From positions 2-64,001 of the forward strand of contig CAYFME010000007.1 in the NCBI GenBank assembly GCA_964344145.1: a stretch of DNA of 64,000 nt, in the 5' to 3' direction. Every line of letters begins with the position of its first letter. Positions within the stretch are counted from its first letter, which is position 1. This document shows positions 1-60,044 of this stretch, in pieces. Made by a program: the position numbers and the translations under genes. The stretch comes from an uncultured Gammaproteobacteria bacterium (lineage in GTDB: Bacteria; Patescibacteriota; Patescibacteriia; UBA9934). The notes under the pieces were generated by a model. It did not search any database. It worked only from the letters and a program-made list of their open reading frames with translations, and was not told the origin of the DNA.

Positions 1-637
1 CGGTCAAAAAGCCCGGACCAGCGATGACGGTTTCGTTCTCGCCAAATGATACGTCCGAGATCGTACTGTTTGTCGTCCAGATGAGCGTTGTCGGTTGTGC
101 GGCATTGTTGAGATCCTCGAGCGCTTTGTGTATCCGAGCCCCCCTTGCCCCCCATGACTGGGGGGTCCTCTGCGCCTCCCCTCCAGCTATGGAGGGGCCG
201 GGGGAGGCTGGGTCGCTCGTGACGATGTTAATCAACGTCTCTCCAGTGCTCGTCGAGCGAATAACAGCGTAGCGTAGCAAGCCGGTATGCGTTTTGCGAT
301 CAAAGAAACTCAGTCCTGCCGTCTTGGTCCACGACCGAACATCGGCAAATAGCTTTTCGATTTTTTCATCAGCAAGAAAACAGGTGTGATTATCGATCAC
401 GCGCCACCATTTTCCTTTCTCGCGCATGCCAACGAGTCCTTCAAAGTTGATCACAAAGTCCATCCGATTGCGATAGTGCTCGGTGATAGGTGAGGGAATG
501 ATGGTTTCGCATTGCAGGTCGAGTTCCTTCAGTCCAAACGAACCATTAATATCCGACAGCTTTTGCTGCAGCTGTTTGTCGTAGGGAATATGTGACCAGC
601 GACACGAACCGCAGAGTTCTGGATTTGGGCAAGGCAT
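1..637 (-). CDS. RumA/RlmD-like RNA (uracil-5)-methyltransferase, N-terminal part (gene continues past window start)
   Basis: Minus-strand translation from ATG at 635-637 gives MPCPNPELCGSCRWSHIPYDKQL (CxxC Fe-S motif) ...YRNRMDFVINF...IWTTNSTISDVSFGENETVIAGPGFLT, matching the RumA family pattern. The partial ORF is absent from the track. It contains an in-frame palindromic insert (138-212). Confidence 0.5.
   Translation of the reverse strand, partial: MPCPNPELCGSCRWSHIPYDKQLQQKLSDINGSFGLKELDLQCETIIPSPITEHYRNRMDFVINFEGLVGMREKGKWWRVIDNHTCFLADEKIEKLFADVRSWTKTAGLSFFDRKTHTGLLRYAVIRSTSTGETLINIVTSDPASPGPSIAGGEAQRTPQSWGARGARIHKALEDLNNAAQPTTLIWTTNSTISDVSFGENETVIAGPGFLT
138..212. repeat. Family-1 two-hairpin palindromic element, solo copy, in-frame inside the rumA-like CDS
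   Basis: Sequence gagccccccttgccccccatgactggggggtcctctgcgcctcccctccagctatggaggggccgggggaggctgg contains two hairpins (ccccccatgactgggggg and cccctccagctatggagggg). It is homologous to 5324-5399, 1768-1807 and 2183-2220. It adds ~24 codons (PASPGPSIAGGEAQRTPQSWGARGA) without breaking the frame. Confidence 0.7.
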
Positions 638-699
638 AGGTATGTGTAAGCACGAGCGCCGATCTCTTCGTGGAGACCGGCGTCACGGACGTTGCGTTG

Positions 700-1053
700 T
701 CAGGAGATGGCGGCGTTGTGCTGCTCGAGCATCGACACGAGCTCGCCCCAGGTGCGCGGGAACTTCGGCAGTCCGATGATCTCGCCATCGCGCCCGATCT
801 GCAGACCGCAGCGGACGTCACCGTCGCCCTTGGGCCAGATCGAGACCTCTTGGCGGTCCTCCGTGTGCCCCACGAGCGTCCGGAAGTTGCGCGTGGGCCA
901 GGACGGGTGAGGTCCGTCGCACTGGCTGTCGAGTCGCTTGTCCGCCCCCAGCAGAACGGTGACGTTGCCAACGCGAACGAAGTTGATCAGGTCAGGATGC
1001 GGCACTGCCAGCCTCCTTCGGCTTGGGCAACAGGCTGCGGGCGTCCTCTGCAC
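700..1053 (-). CDS. hypothetical protein in GC-rich insertion (possibly a frameshifted part of one gene with 992..1402)
   Basis: The 117 aa ORF has protein-like composition (HPDLINFVRVGNVTVLLGADKRL...). It lies in a ~63% GC segment with five mutually overlapping ORFs, so the call is uncertain. Confidence 0.25.
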   Translation of the reverse strand: MQRTPAACCPSRRRLAVPHPDLINFVRVGNVTVLLGADKRLDSQCDGPHPSWPTRNFRTLVGHTEDRQEVSIWPKGDGDVRCGLQIGRDGEIIGLPKFPRTWGELVSMLEQHNAAIS

Positions 1054-1402
1054 GGTTGAGCCCGATGACGCTGACCAGCTCGAGCTCGACGAGGAGGTAG
1101 GCCATCAGCAGGCCGAAGGTGTCGGCCCAGATGGGCACGGGGATGCTGATCCCGAGCTCCTCGATCACCAGGTAGAAGACCTTGCCATTGCCGGGCTTGG
1201 CCATCACGCGGTACGCGACGCTGTCGGTCTGGCCGGGGTTCACGTGGTAGATGCCGATGCACTTGCGGTTGCCCACGGGCAGCGGCTCGTCCCAGGCGAC
1301 GTCGTAGGACAGCTCGCCCTTCGGATGCGTGGCCGGCCGGAACCAGTCGCCATGTTTGGTGATCTGGATGCCCTCGATCGTTTCTGGCACACGGTGAGCC
1401 AT
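992..1402 (-). CDS. hypothetical protein in GC-rich insertion
   Basis: The 136 aa ORF (HVNPGQTDSVAYRVMAKPGNGKVFYLVIEELGI...) overlaps 700..1053 in another frame. The C-terminal 40 aa look like frameshift read-through. Confidence 0.3.
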   Translation of the reverse strand: MAHRVPETIEGIQITKHGDWFRPATHPKGELSYDVAWDEPLPVGNRKCIGIYHVNPGQTDSVAYRVMAKPGNGKVFYLVIEELGISIPVPIWADTFGLLMAYLLVELELVSVIGLNRAEDARSLLPKPKEAGSAAS

Positions 1403-1446
1403 CTGGCCTCCATCTATGGCATGTTCCGCAATGAGAGTAGCAAATA

Positions 1447-1474
1447 TTGGAAAAAAAGCAATAATAGGTATACT
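1447..1474 (+). promoter_or_regulatory. sigma70-like promoter for trmH (TTGGAA -16/17- TATACT)
   Basis: ttggaa at 1447-1452 and tatact at 1469-1474. The ATG at 1485 follows 10 nt after. Confidence 0.4.
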
Positions 1475-1484
1475 AGCGTCGACT

Positions 1485-2393
1485 ATGATCGTGATTGCTC
1501 ACAATATTCGCAGTCTGCACAACGTAGGGGCGATTTTTCGTAATGCGGCAGCATTTGGTGTTGAAACATTGTATTTGACCGGTATCACCGCCACGCCTCC
1601 TCGCAAAGAGATCGCCAAAGTTGCGCTCGGAGCACAGGACTTGGTCGACTGGGAGCAGGGGGATGTGGCACATGTGATTGATACGTTGCGTCAAGATGGG
1701 TATCGAGTGTTTGGCTTAGAAGCGGGCGAAGACGCGATTCCGATCGAGGACTTCGCTCGAGAATGCGCCCCCTCCGGCTCCCCCATAACTGGGGGAGGGA
1801 CTCCACGGTCCTCGATCTACCACGGTTCTCGTAAAGAAAAAAGGCGACTTCGCGGTAGTCTGGACTTAAAGTCCATCGCCCAGGAGATGCGGCGCGACCC
1901 AACTCCCGCTGAGCGTGAACTCTGGCAATATCTTCGACGCAAGCAAGTGCTTGGTTATAAATTCCGACGCCAGCACGGTATCGGTCCTTTTATTGTTGAT
2001 TTTTATTGTGATCGCGCGCGCTTGATTATAGAAGTCGACGGAGATATCCACGATGAATCGGAGAACGTGAAGCGCGATGCATTTCGCCAGCAGATGCTTG
2101 AGGACATCGGATATACTGTTATTCGGTTTCGGAATAAGGAGGTTCTTACTGATCCGGACGCGGTTATTGCACGGATCACCATGTGTCTCCCCTCCAGTTA
2201 TGGAGGGGCAGGGGGAGGCGAGTTTCATGGACGGAACATCGCCCTCGTCCTCGGAAACGAAGTAGACGGTATTGATGCGGATGTTCTTGAGTTGCTTGAT
2301 GGTTTGGTGGAGATTCCAATGGACAAAAAACGTTCGCTCAATGTTTCCGTTGCGTCCGGTGTTGCTATGTACGCGTTTGGGGTCAGGTCTTGA
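1485..2393 (+). CDS. trmH: SpoU/TrmH-family (TrmL-like) RNA 2'-O-methyltransferase interrupted in-frame by a 151-codon mobile insertion
   Basis: N-terminal IVIAHNIRSLHNVGAIFRNAAAFGVETLYL and C-terminal HGRNIALVLGNEVDGI...EIPMDKKRSLNVSVASGVAMYAF match the SpoU motifs. The track ORF 1416..2393 gives a 325 aa product versus ~160 aa for TrmL. The start is probably at 1485, downstream of the promoter. Confidence 0.65.
   Translation: MIVIAHNIRSLHNVGAIFRNAAAFGVETLYLTGITATPPRKEIAKVALGAQDLVDWEQGDVAHVIDTLRQDGYRVFGLEAGEDAIPIEDFARECAPSGSPITGGGTPRSSIYHGSRKEKRRLRGSLDLKSIAQEMRRDPTPAERELWQYLRRKQVLGYKFRRQHGIGPFIVDFYCDRARLIIEVDGDIHDESENVKRDAFRQQMLEDIGYTVIRFRNKEVLTDPDAVIARITMCLPSSYGGAGGGEFHGRNIALVLGNEVDGIDADVLELLDGLVEIPMDKKRSLNVSVASGVAMYAFGVRS
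1768..2220 (+). mobile_element. Family-1 palindromic element carrying a DUF559 (Vsr-like PD-(D/E)xK) endonuclease module, inserted in-frame in trmH
   Basis: The A hairpin half (1768-1807) and B hairpin half (2183-2220) are abutted in the cargo-less copy at 5324-5399. Here they bracket 375 bp encoding PTPAERELWQYLRRKQVLGYKFRRQHGIGPFIVDFYCDRARLIIEVDGDIHDESENVKRDAFRQQMLEDIGYTVIRFRNKEV, a DUF559 signature with D and ExD residues intact. Total length is 453 bp, or 151 codons. Confidence 0.7.
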
Positions 2394-2457
2394 ATCTTGA
2401 ATTATGGCGTTTCAAACGGAAAAAATCACATCAATTCAAGATTCAAGACCTGACCCC
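2379..2457. repeat. 25-bp perfect inverted repeat (ggggtcaggtcttgaatcttgaatt / aattcaagattcaagacctgacccc) with a 29-nt loop, spanning the trmH stop and GT2 start
   Basis: Arms at 2379-2403 and 2433-2457 are exact reverse complements. The loop begins with the ATG at 2404. Confidence 0.6.
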
Positions 2458-3168
2458 ATCTTGTCGATCGTTATTCCGACGTTGAATGAGGAAGAGCTCC
2501 TTCCGGATTTGTTGACGTCCATTGCCATGCAGACGATCCAGCCAGAAGTGATTGTCGCGGATGCGGATTCGTCTGATCGTACGCGCGAGATCGCACACGG
2601 CTTTGGCGCACGTGTGGTCGACGGTGGGCTGCCGGCTGTTGGACGAAATGCAGGAGCGGCTGTAGCAAAAGGAGAGATCATTCTCTTTCTGGATGCTGAC
2701 GTCTTTTTGCCAGACGATCATTTTCTCTCACGTCTTCTTTACGAGTTTACAACACGCCCGCTCGACATCGCTACGGCTGACATCATCCCGGAAAGTGAAA
2801 AGAAGTATGACCGCTTCTCGTTTTGGGTGTATAATAGATATGTTCGTTTATGGGGTGCGCGCCATGCGCACGCGCCCGGATTCTTCATTGTCATCAGGCG
2901 CGCGCTGCACGAGAAGACCGACGGGTTTGATGAAACGATTGTCTTTTGTGAAGATCACGAATACGCCGGCCGCGCGGCCAAGCACGGTCGCTTTGGACTA
3001 CTCAACTCAGTTCAGATTCCAACGTCTGTGCGTCGCTTCGACAAAGATGGCCGTTGGACAATTGCGCGTAAGTTTCTAAAGGCTGAGTGGCATCTTCTGT
3101 TCAAAGGACCAATCCGCGACGACCGATTTCATTACACCTTTGGCTATGGCCCTTCGCGAAAAAAATAG
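2404..3168 (+). CDS. family 2 glycosyltransferase
   Basis: The product carries the N-terminal GT-A signatures SIVIPTLNEEELLPDLLTSIAMQT and ILFLDADV. The true start may be the TTG near 2461, after the hairpin. Confidence 0.7.
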   Translation: MAFQTEKITSIQDSRPDPILSIVIPTLNEEELLPDLLTSIAMQTIQPEVIVADADSSDRTREIAHGFGARVVDGGLPAVGRNAGAAVAKGEIILFLDADVFLPDDHFLSRLLYEFTTRPLDIATADIIPESEKKYDRFSFWVYNRYVRLWGARHAHAPGFFIVIRRALHEKTDGFDETIVFCEDHEYAGRAAKHGRFGLLNSVQIPTSVRRFDKDGRWTIARKFLKAEWHLLFKGPIRDDRFHYTFGYGPSRKK

Positions 3169-3832
3169 ACTGTTCGACAAACAACAGGTGAAACACAAAG
3201 AAGTGATCGAGAAACTGGTCACGGAAAGTTCGCCTCGCAAGACGTTTTTGGTGTTGATTTTTATTTCGAGCATTATCGCGGCGCTCGGGTTGTTGAATGA
3301 TAGCGCAGCGATTGTGATCGGCGCGATGTTGGTGGCGCCGTTGTTGTGGCCGGTGTTGGGACTGAGTATGGGTGCGCTTCTGATCGACGGTCGTATGTTA
3401 CGCCTCTCAGCATTTAGCATCGCCGCATCCGTGGTTATCGCGGTTGGCACGGCGATGGTGATTACGTTTTTTTATGTGCCACTTGGGGCATCGCACGAGA
3501 TTTTGCAGCAAACCAACTTTGGATTCATGATCCCGATTGCGATCGCCGCTGGAGCGGCTGCCGCGTTTGCCATTTGTTACGAGAATGTTAAAGAGGTCGT
3601 TACGGGTATTGCCATCTCCGTTGCGTTGTTGCCGCCGCTTGTGACGATCGGCATCGGCATTGGTGGAACGGACTGGGATCTAATGCGTGATGCTGCACAG
3701 CTGTTTGGTATCAACCTCGTAGGCATCATCTTAACCACGTTCGTTATTTTCTTGCTGCTGGGATTCCAGAGCTACCGACGTACGCTCGAGTCCGCAGTGA
3801 AACGTGAGGAAAAAATTCTCAAAGAGAAATAG
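3140..3832 (+). CDS. integral membrane protein (DUF389/TIGR00341-like)
   Basis: The protein is multi-TM and carries the motif AMLVAPLLWPVLG. Confidence 0.5.
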   Translation: MAMALREKNRLFDKQQVKHKEVIEKLVTESSPRKTFLVLIFISSIIAALGLLNDSAAIVIGAMLVAPLLWPVLGLSMGALLIDGRMLRLSAFSIAASVVIAVGTAMVITFFYVPLGASHEILQQTNFGFMIPIAIAAGAAAAFAICYENVKEVVTGIAISVALLPPLVTIGIGIGGTDWDLMRDAAQLFGINLVGIILTTFVIFLLLGFQSYRRTLESAVKREEKILKEK

Positions 3833-3840
3833 GGAGGAAC

Positions 3841-4749
3841 ATGGCTTCTACAATCAAAGGCAAATCATTCACATGGCATCATATCCCGGCGCTTGCTGAG
3901 GGGGATTTTGCGTATCTGGAAAAGCACTTCAAGTTTCATCCGTTGGATTTTGATGATCTTCGAGACGACACGGCATTGCCAAAGCTTGATGTGTACAAGT
4001 ACTACTTGTTTTCCGTCCTGGCCATTCCTCAATACGATGCGGAAAAGCAACTGGTGAGCAAACAGGACTTGGCGATTTTCATTGGTCCAGATTATGTTGT
4101 GACGGTTGGTCGTACTCAGATCGATGCGGTTGATCGATTTTTCGCGCGAGCGAATCGCAGCACGGGACTCAGGCGCGATGCGCTTGGGAAGTCGACCGGC
4201 TACTTTTTGTACAAGTTGCTCGACTATGTCTTCCGCGACGCAAAGATCATCTTGCACGAGCTTACGCGTGAAACACGCCAGATCGAGACGAACGTCTACG
4301 AACACCAGTCGCGTGGAACAACGGAGCGATTGGGAATCATGAAGCGCAACTTGTTGTTCTTGCAACACGTGATTGATCCACAACGATTGCTGATTCACCA
4401 GTTCCTTAACTCGCGCAAGAAGTTTATTCCAAAGGATTTGGATGTCTATTTTGATGATGTGAAAGATACGCTTGATAGCATTTGGATCATCACAGAAAAC
4501 TTGAAGAACATCATTGACAGTTTGTTTGATGTGAATGAGGCGATCTTGTCGCACCGAACAAACCAAATCATTCGCTGGCTTACGATTATCTCGGTCATTT
4601 TGATGCCGCCAACGTTGATCGCAAGTTACTACGGCATGAACGTCAGTGGTCTGCCGTTTGCTGAAAGTATCGATATTGTGAGTGGAGTGATTCTCGTTTC
4701 GGTGTTTGCATTCGTCCTGTTCGTTTTGTGGATTGATAAGAGAAAGTAG
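3841..4749 (+). CDS. corA: CorA-family Mg2+/Co2+ transporter
   Basis: The YGMN (GMN) motif sits before two C-terminal TM helices. Length is 302 aa. Confidence 0.8.
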   Translation: MASTIKGKSFTWHHIPALAEGDFAYLEKHFKFHPLDFDDLRDDTALPKLDVYKYYLFSVLAIPQYDAEKQLVSKQDLAIFIGPDYVVTVGRTQIDAVDRFFARANRSTGLRRDALGKSTGYFLYKLLDYVFRDAKIILHELTRETRQIETNVYEHQSRGTTERLGIMKRNLLFLQHVIDPQRLLIHQFLNSRKKFIPKDLDVYFDDVKDTLDSIWIITENLKNIIDSLFDVNEAILSHRTNQIIRWLTIISVILMPPTLIASYYGMNVSGLPFAESIDIVSGVILVSVFAFVLFVLWIDKRK

Positions 4750-4750
4750 T

Positions 4751-5323
4751 ATGTCTCGCCCGATTCCTGTCGACATCGTGCCGTCCCATGTGTATCTCAG
4801 CCAAGACGATCAGCTGACCTTGTTTGGGCCGGGATATGCGATGACGATCGAGGGTGAGCTCACGCAAAGTGGTCAACATTACTATGAGGAGACCGTGGAT
4901 GTATTTGGACGACTGAAGCGTTCGCTCTCGCTGCGCGTGCTTGGCCCGGCGTGGGAGCATAGTTTTGCCGAACTCACGCCAACGGAAGCAGCGTTTTTAG
5001 GAATGAGTGCGAAGGAAGGGCGCTCAGGAGATCTGGCCGGCGCGGCTGCTTGTCGATTTGTTGGTCCAGCGGGAGAGGTGTCGTTGAAGCAAGGGGTGAT
5101 CATCAGTCAGCCGCATCTGCGTTGCTCTCCTCAAGACGCTCGATCGTTTCATATTAGCAATGGTGACGAGGTTACGATTGAGATCATCGGCAATCATCCT
5201 CGGCGTGTGAGTGGAGTGATTGTGCGCGTGCATCCAACGTTCAAGCTGCAGGTAGATCTTCATGCGGATCATGCTCGCGATCTGTGGATTACTCGACCAA
5301 TACATGCGCGCCTTGTTTCGTAG
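4751..5323 (+). CDS. pduL: PduL/EutD-type phosphate acyltransferase
   Basis: Two tandem repeats with the H.LS..D...FG pattern (PSHVYLSQDDQLTLFG and SQPHLRCSPQDARSFH) are present. The ATG at 4751 overlaps the corA stop. Confidence 0.6.
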   Translation: MSRPIPVDIVPSHVYLSQDDQLTLFGPGYAMTIEGELTQSGQHYYEETVDVFGRLKRSLSLRVLGPAWEHSFAELTPTEAAFLGMSAKEGRSGDLAGAAACRFVGPAGEVSLKQGVIISQPHLRCSPQDARSFHISNGDEVTIEIIGNHPRRVSGVIVRVHPTFKLQVDLHADHARDLWITRPIHARLVS

Positions 5324-5399
5324 CCCCCTCCGGCTCCCCCATAGCTGGGGGAGAGACTCCACGTGTCACCCCTCCAGTCATGGAGGGGCAGGGGGAGGC
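5324..5399. repeat. Family-1 palindromic element, intergenic cargo-less copy (A+B hairpins adjacent)
   Basis: Sequence ccccctccggctcccccatagctgggggagagactccacgtgtcacccctccagtcatggaggggcagggggaggcc starts at the pduL stop codon. Confidence 0.7.
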
Positions 5400-5416
5400 C
5401 GTGATATACTTTTCTT

Positions 5417-6697
5417 ATGAAACGATTTTTCATCATTGCAGCACTGCTGTTTGCCGCACCGACGGTTACTTTCGCGGCAACGGATCTTGAGCTTCGGTCG
5501 TCTCATACGCGTTTTTCAACCGATACGTTTTTGGTTGGTGAGGAAGTGCGCATTTATGCGACCGTGCGCAACGTCGGCGATGTTGATACGACGGGTTACG
5601 TGGCGTTTTATTATAGTGATTCGTTGCTTGGGAGAAGTCAGGTTGTGACGGTGGTTGCCGATGGAAACGACGAGGAGGTGTGGACGGACTTCACGGTCCC
5701 GTCTGATCCGTTCAATATTTATATTCAGATCGACAGCACGTCGCCGCAGGACGAAGATCTTTCAAACAACGCGTATCTCACACCGCTCTATACGCCGATC
5801 TATGATCAAGATGGCGATGGAGTAGAGGATGAGTCGGATAACTGCCCATCAAACGCCAATGCCAGTCAGACGGACACCGACGGCGATGGATTGGGAGATG
5901 CCTGTGACGATGATGATGACAACGATGGTATTGACGACGATGTTGAGGAAGAGATTGGCACCGATCCGCAGGATGCCGACACGGATGACGATGGCGTTGA
6001 GGATGCGCAAGACGCTTTTCCAACGGATAGCAGTCGAACAGAGGAGGAGGTCGTCATTGAGGAGGTCGAAGAGGTTGTAGAAGAGGTGATAGTGGACGAA
6101 CAGGAGTCCACCGATGAGGCTGAGGCCTCAGAGGGCGTTTCAGATGCAGATGATCATTCAGATGATGCGGAGCCTGCCGAGGAATCTGTCTCCGTTGACA
6201 CACCGCTGATTGAACGCGCGTCTGGATCTATTTTAAACGTCTCACCTGATTCGTCGTTTGTCTATGTGCGGCGCGACTGGAAGACGTATGAGTTCGAGGC
6301 ACTCACACCCGAAGGATCGTATGCATCGCTGCAGTGGGATTTTGGGGATGGGACGAGCTCGGTGCAGCGTACGATTTCGCATTCGTTCCTCAAACCAGGA
6401 AGTTACGAGGTGACCCTTACGGTCACGGACGCGGATGGGAACGAAACAGCTGACACGCAAGAAATTGATATTTCACTGTTCCATCTTGCGAATCCGATGA
6501 TTCAGATGGTTTTGGGCATTCTGTTGATCTTGTTGATCCTCTCAACCATGGCGTTGCGACGAGCACATCGTGCGGTTGAGGAAGCAGACGAGAAGATGAA
6601 AGCGGCGGCGAGAAAGCCGAGAGCGAAGAAGCAAGCAGTAAAGAAGAAGGCTCCGGCACGAAAGAAGTCACAAAAAAGTGAATCAAAAAAGAAGTAA
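5417..6697 (+). CDS. cell-surface protein with thrombospondin type-3-like Ca-binding repeats, a PKD-like domain, a C-terminal TM anchor and a Lys-rich tail
   Basis: A signal peptide [20 protein letters not shown] is followed by DxDxDG repeats ([39 protein letters not shown]). A PKD-like segment [16 protein letters not shown] is also present. The tail is a TM helix plus K-rich sequence. Confidence 0.6.
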
Positions 6698-22276: not shown

Positions 22277-23272
22277 ATGGCAAAGATCCTTCTACCAACA
22301 CTAGACTATCCTCCCCGCACCGGTGGCGTTGCGCGTTACTTGGAGGCAATCAAACAGACCTTGGGGGATGACATGGACGTCCTCTTTTTTGACGATGCCC
22401 CTGGACGACTGTCGATGCTGTGGACGCTTTGGAAGCGTTCGCGATCGTATGAACAGGCTTGGACAAGTCACATTCTTCCAATTGGAACGATGTTGTGGTT
22501 GTTACGGCGGCGTTATAGTGTCTTTTTGCATGGCATGGACTTTGATCTTGCGCGGCGTAGTGCGTGGAAGCGATGGCTTACACGACGTATTCTGAGGCGC
22601 GCTCAGCACGTGTTTGCGAATTCACACGCGCTCGCTTCGGAGATTGGGTCGTTTTGCAACCGAAGGGTGGAAGTTGTGTATCCATGTGTGAGCGATGCGT
22701 TTGTAGAGGCATCGAATGTTGTGCGTCGCGAATCTCACGAAGGCGTAACGCTTCTGACGGTTGGACGATTAGTTGAGCGCAAAGGACATATGGATATGCT
22801 AGAGATCGTTCGTCGCAACAACGATCTGAAATACGTCATTGTCGGCGACGGACCAATGCGTAAGACGATTGAGGACTTTGTCGATGAACATGAGCTTGCC
22901 GATCGCGTTGAGTTATTACAGTCCGTTCCTGATCGCAAGCTGCCGTCGATCTATGCGCGTGCGGATATCTTTGTTATGCCTACACATAAATCTGAAGGTG
23001 ATCGTGAGGGCTTCGGTATCGTGTATCTTGAGGCGCAGCTGTTCGGCACGCCGGTTATCGCTGTTTCTCATCCCGGAGTTAATGAGGCGGTTGTTGAAGG
23101 GGTGGGTGGATTATTGATAAACAGCCATGAGGACCTAGATACGGCTGTAAAAAAGCTGGTTAATGGCCGAGAACTTCGGGAGCAGTTGGGTCGACGAGGG
23201 CAAGAGTTCGTTAAGGCAAAATTCACGAGAGAACACCAGTTTTCTGCTTTGAGGAGCTACATTCCCTCGTGA
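22277..23272 (+). CDS. GT4 (GT-B) glycosyltransferase
   Basis: The ExFGxxxxE motif EGFGIVYLEAQLFGTPVIA is present. Confidence 0.75.
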   Translation: MAKILLPTLDYPPRTGGVARYLEAIKQTLGDDMDVLFFDDAPGRLSMLWTLWKRSRSYEQAWTSHILPIGTMLWLLRRRYSVFLHGMDFDLARRSAWKRWLTRRILRRAQHVFANSHALASEIGSFCNRRVEVVYPCVSDAFVEASNVVRRESHEGVTLLTVGRLVERKGHMDMLEIVRRNNDLKYVIVGDGPMRKTIEDFVDEHELADRVELLQSVPDRKLPSIYARADIFVMPTHKSEGDREGFGIVYLEAQLFGTPVIAVSHPGVNEAVVEGVGGLLINSHEDLDTAVKKLVNGRELREQLGRRGQEFVKAKFTREHQFSALRSYIPS

Positions 23273-23276
23273 ACAT

Positions 23277-24011
23277 TTGGTACGATCGCCACAAATGTTA
23301 ACCGATATGGATCTTGTTTCGATCATCATCCCAACCTATCAGCATGCCGATAGTCTGCCGGTTTGCCTTGATTCGGTATTGGCTCAGACGTACGAGCCTA
23401 TTGAGGTGATCGTCGTGGACGACGGGTCGACGGACAATACGCAAGAGGTGCTTGCGTCGTATGCGCAGCGCGTGATGATGATCAGGCAAGAAAACCAAGG
23501 ACCTCAGTTGGCACGCATGCGCGGGTTTGAAGAGTCGAAAGGCGCATACGTGATTTTTTGTGATGCAGACGTCGAAATGCGACCAGACATGTTGGAGAGG
23601 TTGTACGGCGTGCTGCAGGCACATCCTGAAGCAAGTTATGCGTACTGCGGTTTCAGGTTTGGCTGGAAGCGATTTCATCCAGTGCCATTCGATGCACAGC
23701 GCCTCAAGCGCCATAACTATATTCACACGACTAGCCTCGTACGTCGTACGGACTTTCCAGGCTTTGACCCCGAGGTGAAGCGTCTACAAGATTGGGATGT
23801 TTGGCTGACGATGCTTGCACAAGGGAAGAAGGGTGTTGTCGTGGCTGAGGAGTTGTTTACCGCGCATATCGACGGTTCGTCACGCATCGGAACCGCCTGG
23901 ATGCCGTCGTGGATCTACAAACTGCCATGGAATATGATCGGATGGCGGCCGAAGCGTCTGCGAAAGTACGAAGAGGCGAAGCGGGCGCTCGTGAAGAAAC
24001 ACGGTTTATGA
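23277..24011 (+). CDS. family 2 glycosyltransferase
   Basis: VSIIIPTYQHADSLPVCLDSVLAQTY and IEVIVVDDGSTD are GT2 signatures. Confidence 0.7.
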   Translation: MVRSPQMLTDMDLVSIIIPTYQHADSLPVCLDSVLAQTYEPIEVIVVDDGSTDNTQEVLASYAQRVMMIRQENQGPQLARMRGFEESKGAYVIFCDADVEMRPDMLERLYGVLQAHPEASYAYCGFRFGWKRFHPVPFDAQRLKRHNYIHTTSLVRRTDFPGFDPEVKRLQDWDVWLTMLAQGKKGVVVAEELFTAHIDGSSRIGTAWMPSWIYKLPWNMIGWRPKRLRKYEEAKRALVKKHGL

Positions 24012-30379: not shown

Positions 30380-32126
30380 ACGTAACTTGCAGTATGCAGC
30401 TGTCAGGAAGTTGTTGCAAGTAGGGCAGTAGTTTGCCGTATTTTTGCGGTGGTGTCAAGATCTCGATCGTGTCGTTAATGCGAAAGACAAGTGCATTTAG
30501 CTGCTTTGCCTTCTGAATAACCGTATCTAGACGGGCATCCTTCGTTCCGTGAACGCGGATATTCACTCGGTAACGAAACGGCGGGAGGTGATACGTGTGT
30601 CGCGTTTTCCGTTCGGTGTTGATGAAGGATTCAATGCTCTGCATCGGACGGATGAGTGTTGGCGTGAAGGTCTGGATGAGGCATGTTGTGCGCTGCGTTT
30701 GTGCAAAGAGCGCCAGACGATGGACACGCGAGGCCATTTGTATTCCTGCGTTGGCGTCACCACCCATGTGAAGATCGGTACACGCGTCGGCAACAATACC
30801 AACATTCCATCGCTTGAATGCACGGTGCAGGGTTTGAAAGAAGTATTCGGTCACAAGAAGGATGTCGGCGCTCAATTGTCGATGCTCCTGTTTGTCGACG
30901 ACAGCAATCGAAGCGTTTGGGAACGCTTGCTTCCAAGATTCGATTAGGCGTTTGTTGCCAATGCCGCGCGGCTTAAGGTTCACGCCCTGGCATGACGGAC
31001 AGGACTCCGGGATCCACATTTCCGCATGACACACGCTACAGACAAGGTCGCCGGAGCGCATTTTCGGAACAGATCCGCAGGAACCGCAGTAGGGAATGTG
31101 TCCGCAATCTTTGCACTGCAACCTTTTTGCGTATCCTTTGCGGTTGTACAGAACGATCGCGCGTTTGTTTGCAGCGAGCGCGTTGTCGATATCTGATTTG
31201 AGGCTGTGAGAAAGAAACGGTGTGGACGTCTTTTCGTCTTGGGCCGTGAGATCTACGATACGAAATGCGACATCGGATGCATCAAGCTTTTCTTGATCGG
31301 GACGAATGCGTGGAATCGAACCGCAAGAGAGAAATTCGGCGTTGTGTTGTTTGGCGAGAAGACGTGCCGCGTGGGCCGCATCAAAGCGAGGGTTGCGATC
31401 GTATTGCACGTGGTCGGGATGCGTAGGGTCATAAACGATCACGGCCTCAATCTTTTTTGCTGACAGAAGCGAAGCTTGCTTTGTTCCAACGAGAATATCG
31501 ATCACGCCTTTGCGCCAGTCTCGGATGATTTGCGCGCGTTCGTTGTGGGGTGTGTGGCCATGCAGGTACGCAACGGTCTTGGTATCGGGTAGATATGTGG
31601 CAAGATCGCGTGCGTCTGTTTCGTGGGGCGTGATGATGAGCAGTTGATGCTCAAGCGTACCTGACAGTCGATAGGCCAGAGTGATACACGTTTCCACAGA
31701 ACCCTGCACAAATAATACGCCACCGGGTGGCGTATTGCGGACACCGGTTACCTGCTGAGCGATTTTTGGATGTACAAGGGGATTGAGCGTTGGTTTCGGT
31801 CGCACGGCTGGTCGGGGCTTGCGGTCGATGCCGATGAGCGTTTGATAAAACAGTGTCGATGGTGACTGGACAATCGTCTGCGCGATCGTTTCGATACGAG
31901 TGATATCTGACGGCAGAAAGAGTTGTGGAATGACGACGCGATCGATACTCGATAGTCGCTTATCCGTTCCAGCCTCTGCCTTGATCTGACGAACCACGCC
32001 CAGTACGCTTCGTCCCTTCAGCGGTACGCGCACAAGATCACCAACGCCGACGTCCTCATTGCACGTGTAATCAAAAACGCCGAACCTCCTGGGCAGGCGC
32101 GTGACAGGGTAGACCTCGGCGAACAT
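30372..32126 (-). CDS. priA: primosomal protein N' (PriA) homolog with degenerate helicase motifs
   Basis: The C-terminal Cys-rich zinc-binding region CKDCGHIPYCGSCG...CSVCH...CPSCQG is PriA-like. Walker A reads GSVET, not GSGKT. DEEH is replaced by TPHE. A family-2 palindrome encodes NTPPGGVLF at the Walker A position. Confidence 0.7.
   Translation of the reverse strand: MFAEVYPVTRLPRRFGVFDYTCNEDVGVGDLVRVPLKGRSVLGVVRQIKAEAGTDKRLSSIDRVVIPQLFLPSDITRIETIAQTIVQSPSTLFYQTLIGIDRKPRPAVRPKPTLNPLVHPKIAQQVTGVRNTPPGGVLFVQGSVETCITLAYRLSGTLEHQLLIITPHETDARDLATYLPDTKTVAYLHGHTPHNERAQIIRDWRKGVIDILVGTKQASLLSAKKIEAVIVYDPTHPDHVQYDRNPRFDAAHAARLLAKQHNAEFLSCGSIPRIRPDQEKLDASDVAFRIVDLTAQDEKTSTPFLSHSLKSDIDNALAANKRAIVLYNRKGYAKRLQCKDCGHIPYCGSCGSVPKMRSGDLVCSVCHAEMWIPESCPSCQGVNLKPRGIGNKRLIESWKQAFPNASIAVVDKQEHRQLSADILLVTEYFFQTLHRAFKRWNVGIVADACTDLHMGGDANAGIQMASRVHRLALFAQTQRTTCLIQTFTPTLIRPMQSIESFINTERKTRHTYHLPPFRYRVNIRVHGTKDARLDTVIQKAKQLNALVFRINDTIEILTPPQKYGKLLPYLQQLPDSCILQVTYG
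31714..31736. repeat. Family-2 palindrome (AATACGCCACCGGGTGGCGTATT) embedded in-frame in priA
   Basis: Its core is identical to the copies at 34289-34351. Confidence 0.65.
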
Positions 32127-34265: not shown

Positions 34266-34288
34266 GGCGTGATTATAGCACGTATTTA

Positions 34289-34351
34289 GAATACGCCACC
34301 CGGTGGCGTATTCCTCGTCGACTGCAGAATACGCCACCGGGTGGCGTATTC
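34289..34351. repeat. Family-2 palindromes, two inverted 25-bp copies (GAATACGCCACCCGGTGGCGTATTC and its reverse complement) 13 bp apart
   Basis: Copies lie at 34289-34313 and 34327-34351 in the divergent promoter region. Confidence 0.7.
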
Positions 34352-39221: not shown

Positions 39222-39626
39222 ATGACAATGAAAAAGGCTTGGCTTATTATCGGTATCGTTCTTCTCGCGCATGCGATTGGGTTGGTTTTCGACCTGTATG
39301 AGCTTATTGAGTGGTATGACGTTCCTATGCATGCAGGCGGTGGATTTGCCATGGGGGCGCTAGGATTGGCGATTTGGAACGAAGGCATTGAGGAGGTGCG
39401 GTTTAAAGGGGCTCTGCAACGTCATTTGAAATGGTGGCTTGTTCCTGGAATTGTCCTCGGGTTCGTGGCCTTAGTTGGCGTCCTTTGGGAAGTGCATGAA
39501 TGGCTATTGGATGAGTTTGTTGGTGGAGGTACGCTGCGCCAACCGGATGTTGCCGATACGATGGCCGACTTTATTTTTGATCTTTTGGGTGGTATAGCTG
39601 CTTTGGCTATCTGGAGACGTAAGTGA
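39222..39626 (+). CDS. hypothetical membrane protein (3-4 TM)
   Basis: The 134 aa product is hydrophobic and includes HEWLLDEF and DFIFDLLGG. Confidence 0.5.
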   Translation: MTMKKAWLIIGIVLLAHAIGLVFDLYELIEWYDVPMHAGGGFAMGALGLAIWNEGIEEVRFKGALQRHLKWWLVPGIVLGFVALVGVLWEVHEWLLDEFVGGGTLRQPDVADTMADFIFDLLGGIAALAIWRRK

Positions 39627-39653
39627 ACATTTGTGGCGATCGTCACAAATGTT
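39626..39653. repeat. Family-3 palindrome copy a (AACATTTGTGGCGATCGTCACAAATGTT), between 39222..39626 and the wecB-like gene
   Basis: A 28-bp near-perfect palindrome with one mismatch pair has a CGATCG core. TTGACC follows it. Confidence 0.65.
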
Positions 39654-39664
39654 GACCAACTAGT

Positions 39665-59451: not shown

Positions 59452-59483
59452 GGCGGTAGTTTAGCACACTTACGAGAGGTCAA

Positions 59484-59508
59484 TATTTATGGCGATCGCC
59501 ACAAATTG
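59484..59508. repeat. Family-3 palindrome copy b (ATTTATGGCGATCGCCACAAATT), 35-57 bp upstream of the helicase-nuclease start
   Basis: A perfect GGCGATCGCC core sits in symmetric flanks. TGACC is adjacent on the minus strand. Confidence 0.6.
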
Positions 59509-59512
59509 TAAC

Positions 59513-60010
59513 CTAACGATATTCGTCGAGGATCCGATAAATGTAGACGTATTCTTCAACCCCAACCTCTTTTATAAGCTTACGAAAATTCTCAATAACA
59601 TTCGTTGTTCCGTGCCAGACACTTCGTTGAAGAAGTGTGAAGCCAGCCTCCTTAAGAAGCCTTCTAAGCATCGCCCTCACATTTCTCATTGGCTCGGGAA
59701 TGTCGAATACGAGCAAGTTGGCCTGCCCCTCTGGTAGACGCACCTTTTCGTCAATGATTTGTCGCTTTAACGCGTGTACACGACCCTTGCTTGTAAGTCG
59801 GTACTCAATTTTTTCACCCTTTTTTCGAAGTTCGATAAACCTCCTCTTAGCTAAGTATCTGACTTCGCGCATTCGTCTCGCCTCCATCTTCCATGCGACA
59901 CCATCGAGAGAGTACGTTCTATGTGGCAACGCCTCTCCGAGCTCGGAAGCAACATTAAATAGACTGACTAACGTGTCACTACATTTGGACATAGATTGGT
60001 GGGTGAACAT
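59513..60010 (-). CDS. winged-helix + Cas2-like (type I-E Cas2/VapD fold) domain protein; PaaX-like regulator candidate
   Basis: The C-terminal LLVFDIPEPMRNVRAMLRRLLKEAGFTLLQRSVW...VYIYRI parallels the Cas2 beta1-alpha1-beta2 pattern [33 protein letters not shown]. The N-terminus is wHTH-like. Start codon is the ATG at 60008-60010 (MFTHQS...) or the one at 59990-59992 (MSKCSD...). Confidence 0.5.
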   Translation of the reverse strand: MFTHQSMSKCSDTLVSLFNVASELGEALPHRTYSLDGVAWKMEARRMREVRYLAKRRFIELRKKGEKIEYRLTSKGRVHALKRQIIDEKVRLPEGQANLLVFDIPEPMRNVRAMLRRLLKEAGFTLLQRSVWHGTTNVIENFRKLIKEVGVEEYVYIYRILDEYR

Positions 60011-60033
60011 TTGTGGCGATCGTACCAAAAGTT
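60005..60033. repeat. Family-3 palindrome copy c (AACATTTGTGGCGATCGTACCAAAAGTT), overlapping the start region of the wHTH-Cas2-like gene
   Basis: It shares 21 identical bases with copy a (gtgaacatttgtggcgatcgt). Confidence 0.6.
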
Positions 60034-60044
60034 TACCACACCCT

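Follow-up and report, generated by a model that had tools for sequence, protein, structure and literature searches.

How does an RNA methyltransferase gene come to hold an endonuclease in its middle, and can its product survive the intrusion? The question is raised by the first kilobases of the window analysed here, a 64,000-nt stretch (positions 2 to 64,001 of contig CAYFME010000007.1, assembly GCA_964344145.1) from an uncultured Gammaproteobacteria bacterium that GTDB places in the Patescibacteriota (UBA9934). In this DNA, from an Uhrbacteria-like genome, a trmH-family gene carries an in-frame insert in which a DUF559 nuclease domain lies between two palindromic hairpin modules. The initial annotation had described an endonuclease-bearing palindromic element in frame inside trmH, and our analysis agrees with it: the SpoU profile of the host is split by DUF559, with hairpin modules at both ends of the insert. 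We conclude that the element probably belongs, as an autonomous member, to a family of small mobile palindromes that carry a DUF559 nuclease. A mobile element with non-autonomous derivatives is the favoured reading because of the inverted hairpin ends, the single nuclease gene, the cargo-less forms, the empty sites and the recurrence at non-orthologous places, each of which is described below.

The interrupted trmH gene

The host open reading frame (ORF) spans 1416-2393 on the plus strand, and its most likely start is the ATG at 1485, which gives a product of 302 amino acids (aa). The N-terminus that follows from this start, MIVIAHNIRS, is common to the fusion and its orthologues, a promoter-like site lies ahead of the ATG at 1447-1474, and the protein records include the 302-aa form but not the 325-aa form that begins at the first ATG. 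In Pfam searches, the ORF from 1485 to 2393 matches PF00588 (SpoU_methylase, 101 bits) in two separate stretches, with PF04480 (DUF559, E=5.8e-37) between them. The first stretch, residues 1-90, belongs to the N-terminal part of trmH (1485-1766, plus strand), which contains the SpoU motif 1 region and matches the orthologue N-termini. The second belongs to the C-terminal part (2220-2393, plus strand, stop codon included), which contains SpoU motifs 2 and 3 and the knot region, is matched by the RlmB/TrmH models of NCBIfam at residues 250-297 and aligns with the orthologues. Furthermore, the fusion host fits the profile of the SPOUT/TrmH-family 2'-O-methyltransferases (SpoU motifs 1-3, knotted alpha/beta fold). 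From these matches, the host gene product appears to be a tRNA or rRNA methyltransferase of the SpoU/TrmH family, with tRNA G18 or rRNA as its candidate substrate.

Anatomy of the inserted element

The insert occupies 1767-2219. Its length of 453 nt, or 151 codons without a stop, is as first annotated, but the coordinates then given, 1768-2220, are one base off and translate with stops. It opens with a left end module (1767-1807, plus strand; translated APSGSPITGGGTP), in which the hairpin CTCCCCC-ATAACT-GGGGGAG lies at 1778-1797. The cargo follows (1808-2178, plus strand), with a short basic leader and then a complete DUF559 domain (Pfam match at nt 1866-2186), and the insert closes with a right end module (2179-2219, plus strand; translated MCLPSSYGGAGGG), in which the hairpin CCCCTCC-AGTTAT-GGAGGGG at 2189-2208 is succeeded by a tail, CAGGGGGAGGC. 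In both hairpins the 5' arm consists of pyrimidines only and the 3' arm of purines only, and each half is predicted to fold as an 8-bp G/C stem with a 4-nt loop. The left and right hairpin loops are exact reverse complements and the terminal inverted repeats are imperfect, with stems that differ consistently in the position of a single T (CTCCCCC versus CCCCTCC). Among the related loci that we compared (numbered with the prefix L), the left-type module also borders DUF559 genes in L002, L003, L007 and L084, and the two stems are swapped in L006.

At its two boundaries the cargo has a 5-bp direct repeat (CCACG, 1803-1807; CCATG, 2179-2183). The initial annotation had correctly placed the cargo between the repeat halves but made it 375 bp; it is 371 nt, or 376 nt with the direct repeat included. 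Host and insert meet at Cys-Ala on the left (C then APSG) and at Gly-Glu on the right (GGG then EFH), and the junction-region peptides of the fusion are FARECAPSGSPITGGG and SSYGGAGGGEFHGR. Of the six frames of the 453-nt insert, only the one in use is open. The hairpin arms cannot encode stops, and we considered whether the hairpins are adapted to be stop-free in all frames; this was rejected because the cargo-less copies are open in just 3-4 of six frames, near the ~3 that a rough estimate for this G+C content and length predicts by chance.

That the cargo holds a complete DUF559 domain with its acidic catalytic residues intact, as had been annotated, is borne out in detail. Searched alone, the insert matches PF04480 with E=1.2e-37 and 128.5 bits (curated cut-off 20.6) over profile positions 3-107 of 109. 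Its sole match among the PDB sequences at E<=1 is 3hrl (E=2.4e-19), and the I-Bth0305I-type structure 3r3p gives no sequence match to the insert at that threshold. In a Foldseek comparison, the DUF559 part of the structural model agrees with 3hrl at a TM-score of 0.84 and a root-mean-square deviation of 2.0 A. The residues that are invariant in the family alignment, D78, E89, D91 and H95 (insert numbering), are all present at the sequence level. The cargo thus appears to be a complete Vsr-like PD-(D/E)xK nuclease domain of the DUF559 family, with predicted activity. It is the sole domain that the element encodes, and Pfam and NCBIfam searches of the ORF found no DDE, HUH/Y1 or serine transposase. 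The closest relatives of the insert are just ~50% identical to it; a Patescibacteria subgroup of these relatives has the flank peptides APSxSPINGG ... PSIYGGVGGG and therefore shares the hairpins.

The two hairpin modules also occur directly abutted and without cargo, at the two places that had been annotated. The copy at 5323-5399 (plus strand) stands at the very end of a PTAC-domain gene, with left and right modules joined at a single CCACG; 5323-5363 is 95% identical to the left end of the loaded element (1767-1807) and 5359-5399 is 93% identical to its right end (2179-2219), and the predicted hairpin folds are shared. The copy at 138-212 (plus strand) is 75 nt long and more diverged, with 85% identity between 168-208 and the right end, and its translation is PASPGPSIAGGEAQRTPQSWGARGAR. 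A TrmA/RlmD-like methyltransferase gene on the minus strand (PF05958; 1-637, running off the window edge) harbours this copy in frame and in antisense orientation, and there it contributes to the sequence ...TSDPASPGPSIAGGEAQRTPQSWGARGARIHK... of the protein. Hairpin pattern searches of the window gave 7 and 4 matches against a chance expectation of 0.02, and an nhmmer profile found exactly three element copies in the 64 kb.

The window holds other dispersed palindromes that are separate from this element. Four copies of a 36-nt palindrome, GTGAACATTTGTGGCGATCGTCACAAATGTTGACCA (centre GGCGATCGCC), lie at 23269-23304, 39623-39658, 59479-59514 and 60003-60038. A 26-nt palindrome, AGAATACGCCACCCGGTGGCGTATTC, is present in three copies (31712-31737, 34288-34313 and 34326-34351), two of which are 13 nt apart.

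Empty sites in a syntenic relative

We aligned the window piecewise and through protein with L082, the locus that carries protein P0003. L082 is syntenic with the window through the genes for a TrmA-like protein, a small ORF, TrmH, a glycosyltransferase, DUF389, CorA, PTAC, a PKD protein and MurJ, and it is empty at all three element sites. Its TrmH has 143 aa and no insert, its TrmA-like protein is without the 20-25 extra residues, and its PTAC/PKD spacer measures 12 nt. Relative to L082, the third site in the window is an 81-nt insertion (5321-5401) just ahead of the original TGA of the PTAC gene, and the insertion starts with a TAG stop of its own. A strict hairpin finder reports the three element copies alone in the window and nothing in L082.

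Similarly, a search with the insert-deleted TrmH found 1,754 homologues. The best 120 of these are TrmH-family proteins of 142-226 aa (mostly 143-150), with up to 78% identity and DUF559 in none of the 120, and the named sources among them are Candidatus Uhrbacteria or Patescibacteria. The initial annotation had treated the natural presence of the segment in orthologous TrmH proteins as the finding that would speak against an insertion; neither these 120 nor L082 carry it. Since the syntenic L082 is empty and the best 120 orthologues are insert-free, the copies at all three window sites are lineage-specific insertions, and by the same comparison the trmH insertion appears to be recent relative to L082.

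Other differences from L082 were seen on either side of the element. A perfect 26-nt inverted repeat at 2378-2458 (TGGGGTCAGGTCTTGAATCTTGAATT ... AATTCAAGATTCAAGACCTGACCCCA; DNA fold -32 kcal/mol, z = -10) extends from the final codons of trmH across its stop into the beginning of the following gene, which encodes the glycosyltransferase. Because it is missing in L082, where trmH and the glycosyltransferase gene overlap, it looks like a second, unrelated palindromic insertion, one that may have rebuilt the C-terminus of TrmH and the N-terminus encoded by the next gene. Between the TrmA-like gene and trmH, a G+C island of 64-67% (window about 650-1400; genome ~50%) contains a pair of small ORFs on the minus strand (700-1005 and 992-1402), for which there is no recorded Pfam hit and no PADLOC hit; L082 has a single 100-aa ORF at this position.

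Predicted tolerance by the host protein

In the protein alignment, the insert falls in a variable loop immediately ahead of the motif 2 strand 'IALVLGNE', a loop whose counterpart in Aquifex TrmH (PDB 1zjr) is 'F-REVDYT-KP'. A loop insertion had been suggested from the outset, and both this position and the modelling of the flanking peptides as disordered linkers are in keeping with it. All 66 columns that do not vary among ten insert-free orthologues are retained in the TrmH of the window. Furthermore, of the positions with at least 95% conservation across 120 orthologues, the window fusion retains 60 of 60, and the two other TrmH::DUF559 fusions that are described below retain 60 and 58 of 60. 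In the AlphaFold2 model, the predicted local distance difference test score (pLDDT) is >90 for both SPOUT halves and for DUF559 and falls to <50 just for residues 101-125 and 239-248, which are the hairpin-encoded peptides plus the leader. Foldseek aligns the model over its whole length to methyltransferase structures of TrmH, RlmB and TARBP1 (2ha8, 1v2x, 1zjr, 1gz0). The fusion is predicted to be an intact SPOUT fold with a separate nuclease domain on disordered linkers, which the hairpin modules encode as Pro/Ser- and Gly-rich peptides. The conserved residues, the open frame and the model are together what a tolerated domain-in-loop insertion should look like.

Repeated invasion of the TrmH loop

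Among 5.8e9 proteins searched with the whole 302-aa sequence, there were just three TrmH::DUF559 fusions: P0241 (the protein of the window, identical on three contigs), P0242 (L084) and P0243 (L002). All three inserts occupy one loop and are mutually 55-57% identical. Each host is more similar to orthologues that lack the insert (80-82%, 75% and 85% identity) than to the other fusion hosts (65-72%), and the three nuclease cores are not mutual nearest relatives among 93 family members, by differences in identity that are small. L002 (CAYZYJ010000001.1) is labelled as an uncultured Gammaproteobacteria, and its TrmH best matches Uhrbacteria/Patescibacteria-type proteins; judging from these matches, the taxonomic label may be wrong.

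Traces of further elements are found in the same loop of other orthologues. Short repeat-derived peptides occur there, for example SPSFEGGVRGGY, SPPAGGGVRGGG, TTPDPSSERRG and APLGKGGDEDSPPFQGGVRGGS. In L087, the loop holds a cargo-less element of a different subfamily (with TTxxAA loops), which must therefore be an independent insertion. In L086 (P0245, 1501-2001), whose host is 85% identical to that of L002, the trmH loop contains a 33-nt in-frame scar, ALSSSSMSERG. This scar is the expected remnant of an L002-like element after deletion between its two GGGGGAG direct repeats: the left hairpin, decayed by C>T and G>A transitions, is joined directly to the last bases of the element. L086 shows how elements get lost and why the length of the loop varies among orthologues. 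Taken with the independent element of L087 and the repeat-derived peptides, it means that elements have been gained, have decayed and have been lost repeatedly in the TrmH loop.

Hairpin-flanked DUF559 genes in other phyla

DUF559 is a very large family of unknown function, with 26,270 clusters (50% identity) at E<=1e-3 and 12,850 at E<=1e-10. We sampled 79 DUF559 loci from species-representative genomes of many phyla. At most of them, significant inverted repeats with the same kind of hairpin border the gene, and each end of the family elements has a G/C-rich hairpin and, behind it, a G-rich tail. Hairpins of the strict type, in which one arm is all pyrimidine and the other all purine, reach a density of 4.29 per kb no farther than 200 nt from the nuclease core, compared with 0.156 per kb elsewhere; at least one lies within 200 nt of the core in 64 of the 79 loci, and 37 have hairpins on both sides. 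The stems vary by lineage (CTCCCCC, CCCCTCC, CCTCCCC, CCCTCTCC and others). By this sequence evidence, the association between nuclease and hairpin holds across phyla.

Additional cargo-less hairpin pairs or arrays are frequent at these loci (L009, L016, L023, L042, L066 and L078). At L009 (4343-5147) and L066 (2952-4821), the DUF559 gene lies next to arrays of its own hairpins, which resemble the clusters of repetitive extragenic palindromic (REP) sequences known as bacterial interspersed mosaic elements. One of these two cases, in a metagenome-assembled genome of the Anaerolineales, is a tandem hairpin array with a period of ~124 nt, and the other, in one of the Thermoanaerobaculia, has nine hairpins in alternating orientation. 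A metagenome scan with the exact two-hairpin pattern, which is narrow, gave a single further cargo-less copy, L085; this copy stands directly after a TAA stop, and its spacer contains apparent remnants of the cargo ends. Proteins P0353, P0355-P0357 and P0359 have two or three tandem DUF559 domains and, to judge by this arrangement, are possibly elements inserted adjacent to or within one another.

The DUF559 frame continues through the flanking hairpin in 25 cases on the left (closed in 18) and in 29 on the right (closed in 29). In seven kinds of host protein (PriA, HsdR, MetH, UvrC, HolC, Mur ligase and HsdS), the frame extends at both ends into the sequence of the host. In PriA, the insert separates the winged-helix region from the helicase (confirmed against PDB 4nl4); in HsdR it stands between the nuclease and motor domains, and in HsdS between the two target-recognition domains. 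It splits the activation-domain profile of methionine synthase (MetH) in two, and similarly splits the RNase H domain profile of UvrC and the profile of the DNA polymerase III chi subunit (HolC); the DUF559 insert of the Mur ligase is likewise in frame. In each of these host proteins, Pro/Ser-rich and then Gly-rich peptides bracket the nuclease. Further fusion partners of DUF559 are Eco57I-like or type ISP enzymes, SMC-like ATPases, RecQ-like helicases, Cas4 and a DNA glycosylase. We have not counted these as insertions, since some could be true functional fusions or result from read-through of neighbouring genes.

Only 3 of 50,697 phage records and 45 of 72,556 plasmid records contain the family, too few copies in either set to suggest a carrier. 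PADLOC gave weak matches to DUF559-containing defence proteins, with no system context.

Proposed origin and spread of the element

The element entered the variable surface loop before the trmH motif-2 strand in sense orientation and in frame, and the ribosome can read through it. If it is a mobile element with its own nuclease, its further history can be outlined as follows. The two nearby cargo-less copies would be internal-deletion derivatives, with their junction at the 5-bp CCAYG repeat, that moved in trans; an origin by internal deletion is favoured because of the CCAYG repeat, the cargo-end remnants in L085 and the direct-repeat deletion in L086. As the only encoded protein, and one that accompanies hairpins varying by lineage, the nuclease probably recognises the palindromic ends and would start mobility by cutting DNA. 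A Vsr-like hydrolase can nick or cut but cannot join strands, so the copying would most likely be done by host recombination or repair, in a homing-like manner and not by DDE- or HUH-type transposition. In the gene-dense Patescibacteria, selection would then spare only those copies that sit at the end of a gene (5323-5399, L085) or in frame within a permissive loop, and the fusion protein would be made and would remain active.

[quoted passage not shown] With MITEs and their autonomous insertion sequence or transposon parents it shares imperfect terminal inverted repeats, short cargo-less and long one-ORF forms, and empty sites; it differs from them in having no DDE, serine or HUH transposase and no definable target-site duplication at its three sites.

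Several points weigh against this history. A lone PD-(D/E)xK hydrolase cannot perform strand transfer, which makes the copying step hypothetical, and the homology arms for repair-mediated copying are just ~40 nt. Comparison of the three junctions with the empty sites of L082 defined no consistent target-site duplication or target motif. All three copies lie in the first 5.4 kb of the window and none in the other 58.6 kb, a clustering that is unexpected for a freely transposing element and suggests local spread or a recent burst beside the loaded copy. The three TrmH fusions could also descend from one old insertion followed by many losses, or be survivors of older alleles, since loss by deletion is documented (L086) and the differences between nuclease cores are small. 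Finally, a role of hairpin-flanked DUF559 as a nuclease in transposition is deduced from gene context, and the expression and activity of the fusion protein are predictions.

The main rival explanation, which we consider unlikely, takes the cargo-less two-hairpin palindrome as the primary mobile unit, moved by some other enzyme, and has an endonuclease gene invade its centre by homing. Loaded and empty forms do differ by the central cargo alone, cargo-less elements do sit in the trmH loop of other genomes, and cargo-less copies outnumber loaded ones in many loci. Vsr-like homing endonucleases (EDxHD, I-Bth0305I type) are also known, from fractured genes and group I introns, as free-standing ORFs or within introns or split inteins (PMC2677866), and the element shares with them a Vsr-fold nuclease as a selfish payload in conserved housekeeping genes. 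However, there is no splicing element and no gene break here, and the nuclease is read through in the host protein. Against the rival, homing normally leaves no duplication, whereas the CCACG/CCATG pair that bounds the cargo resembles a deletion junction; direct-repeat deletion is documented in the family (L086), the spacer of L085 still has apparent cargo ends, and no second mobility gene was seen beside the elements.

It also seems rather unlikely that trmH was simply inactivated, so that the gene is a young pseudogene whose frame is still open and whose insertion is not tolerated but not yet decayed. TrmH-family enzymes are dispensable in model bacteria, so that the word 'essential' in the initial annotation goes too far; the activity of the host is a prediction, and the insertion is recent relative to L082. 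Against this, translation uses the only insert frame of six that is open, the model predicts an intact fold, and the full retention of conserved positions in the window fusion is nearly matched (60 and 58 of 60) in the other two, which were sampled independently and whose inserts have diverged to ~55% identity.

We give less credence to a partnership like that of REPIN/RAYT systems, in which DUF559 would be a long-resident, largely vertical gene that maintains and spreads its cognate hairpins, with the trmH copy an accident; this we regard as improbable. In REPIN/RAYT systems, a nuclease-type gene (the REP-associated tyrosine transposase, RAYT) is flanked by inverted hairpin repeats, and doublets without cargo are scattered through the genome or grouped; the RAYTs belong to the HUH/Y1 enzymes, and the REPs lie outside genes (PMC3116915, PMC3337134). 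The resemblance lies in a nuclease gene with inverted flanking hairpins that are also dispersed in the genome, including clustered alternating hairpins nearby at L066, L009 and L078 (compare PMC3116915), and the rarity of the family on phages and plasmids would fit a resident gene. However, DUF559 is a Vsr-like PD-(D/E)xK and not an HUH/Y1 enzyme, and copies lie inside coding sequence. The nuclease is found at non-syntenic, non-orthologous places across lineages, unrelated genes among them, and is absent from close relatives of the window genome, which argues that the gene itself moves.

A native adaptive fusion, in which TrmH gained a nuclease for its own function, is very improbable. A SPOUT methyltransferase joined to a DUF559 nuclease has been reported before, as the C-terminal TrmJ-DUF559 fusions of a small clade of Alphaproteobacteria, which are terminal and were described with no repeat context or mobile-element reading (Tkaczuk et al. 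2007, PMC1829167). Here, in contrast, the nuclease sits within a loop, between the halves of a dispersed repeat that is cargo-less in its other copies, it is present in 3 of >1,700 detected orthologues that do not group together, and the same module occurs in unrelated host proteins.

An intein, an intron or an assembly artefact can practically be discounted: the in-frame endonuclease in a conserved enzyme and the empty alleles in relatives do recall inteins, but, as first annotated, no Hint/intein family is found at E<=0.1 and the Cys-Ala ... Gly-Glu junctions are without His-Asn followed by Cys/Ser/Thr, so that the insert should stay in the mature protein, while positions 1-6000 of the window contain no group I or II intron and no other Rfam family above its gathering score (the hairpins give weak chance matches to microRNA precursors only), and the protein is identical on three contigs with similar fusions in two unrelated assemblies.

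Implications

The closest descriptive analogue of the element as an in-frame resident of genes is the Rickettsia palindromic element (RPE; Ogata et al. 2000). In a later summary of that work, RPEs are described as short palindromic repeats in frame in unrelated coding genes, translated as extra surface peptides that leave host proteins intact; they are given there as ~100-150 bp, without an associated enzyme, and known from Rickettsia (PMC10969869). The likeness, already drawn in the initial annotation, is apt in that a palindromic repeat lies in frame in coding genes, here trmH, the cargo-less copy in the TrmA/RlmD-like gene and the elements or scars of further TrmH orthologues. The present element differs in its ~77-nt two-hairpin module, its full-length form with a nuclease gene and its presence in many phyla, and it is an analogue by description, not by sequence.

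Full-text literature searches of incomplete coverage, which therefore do not prove novelty, gave no account of DUF559 elements with flanking hairpins, nor of such elements residing in frame in genes. We tentatively suggest, as a possibility that falls somewhat short of even chances, that hairpin-flanked DUF559 genes form a large undescribed class of selfish elements, able to persist as domain insertions that are in frame and do not splice, and whose hairpins double as recognition sites for the nuclease and as code for Pro/Ser/Gly linkers. If so, this dual role of the hairpins would let an element sit in enzymes of an essential type (TrmH, PriA, MetH, UvrC, HolC, Mur ligase) without killing them. 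Inteins and introns would then be joined by a third means by which selfish elements with an endonuclease occupy conserved genes, namely translation as a tolerated loop domain.

We know of no mobility enzyme for in-frame palindromic insertions such as those of Rickettsia. The elements described here would represent the missing autonomous partner for RPE-like in-frame palindromes, and their long, nuclease-coding form would make the mover of such palindromes testable with one small protein and a 77-nt substrate. For genome annotation, odd DUF559 'fusion' architectures may prove to be insertions. For protein engineering, the elements would mark natural permissive sites and bring natural linkers with them. 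Furthermore, they would provide a route by which nuclease domains are shuffled into proteins, and would thus bear on protein evolution by domain insertion.

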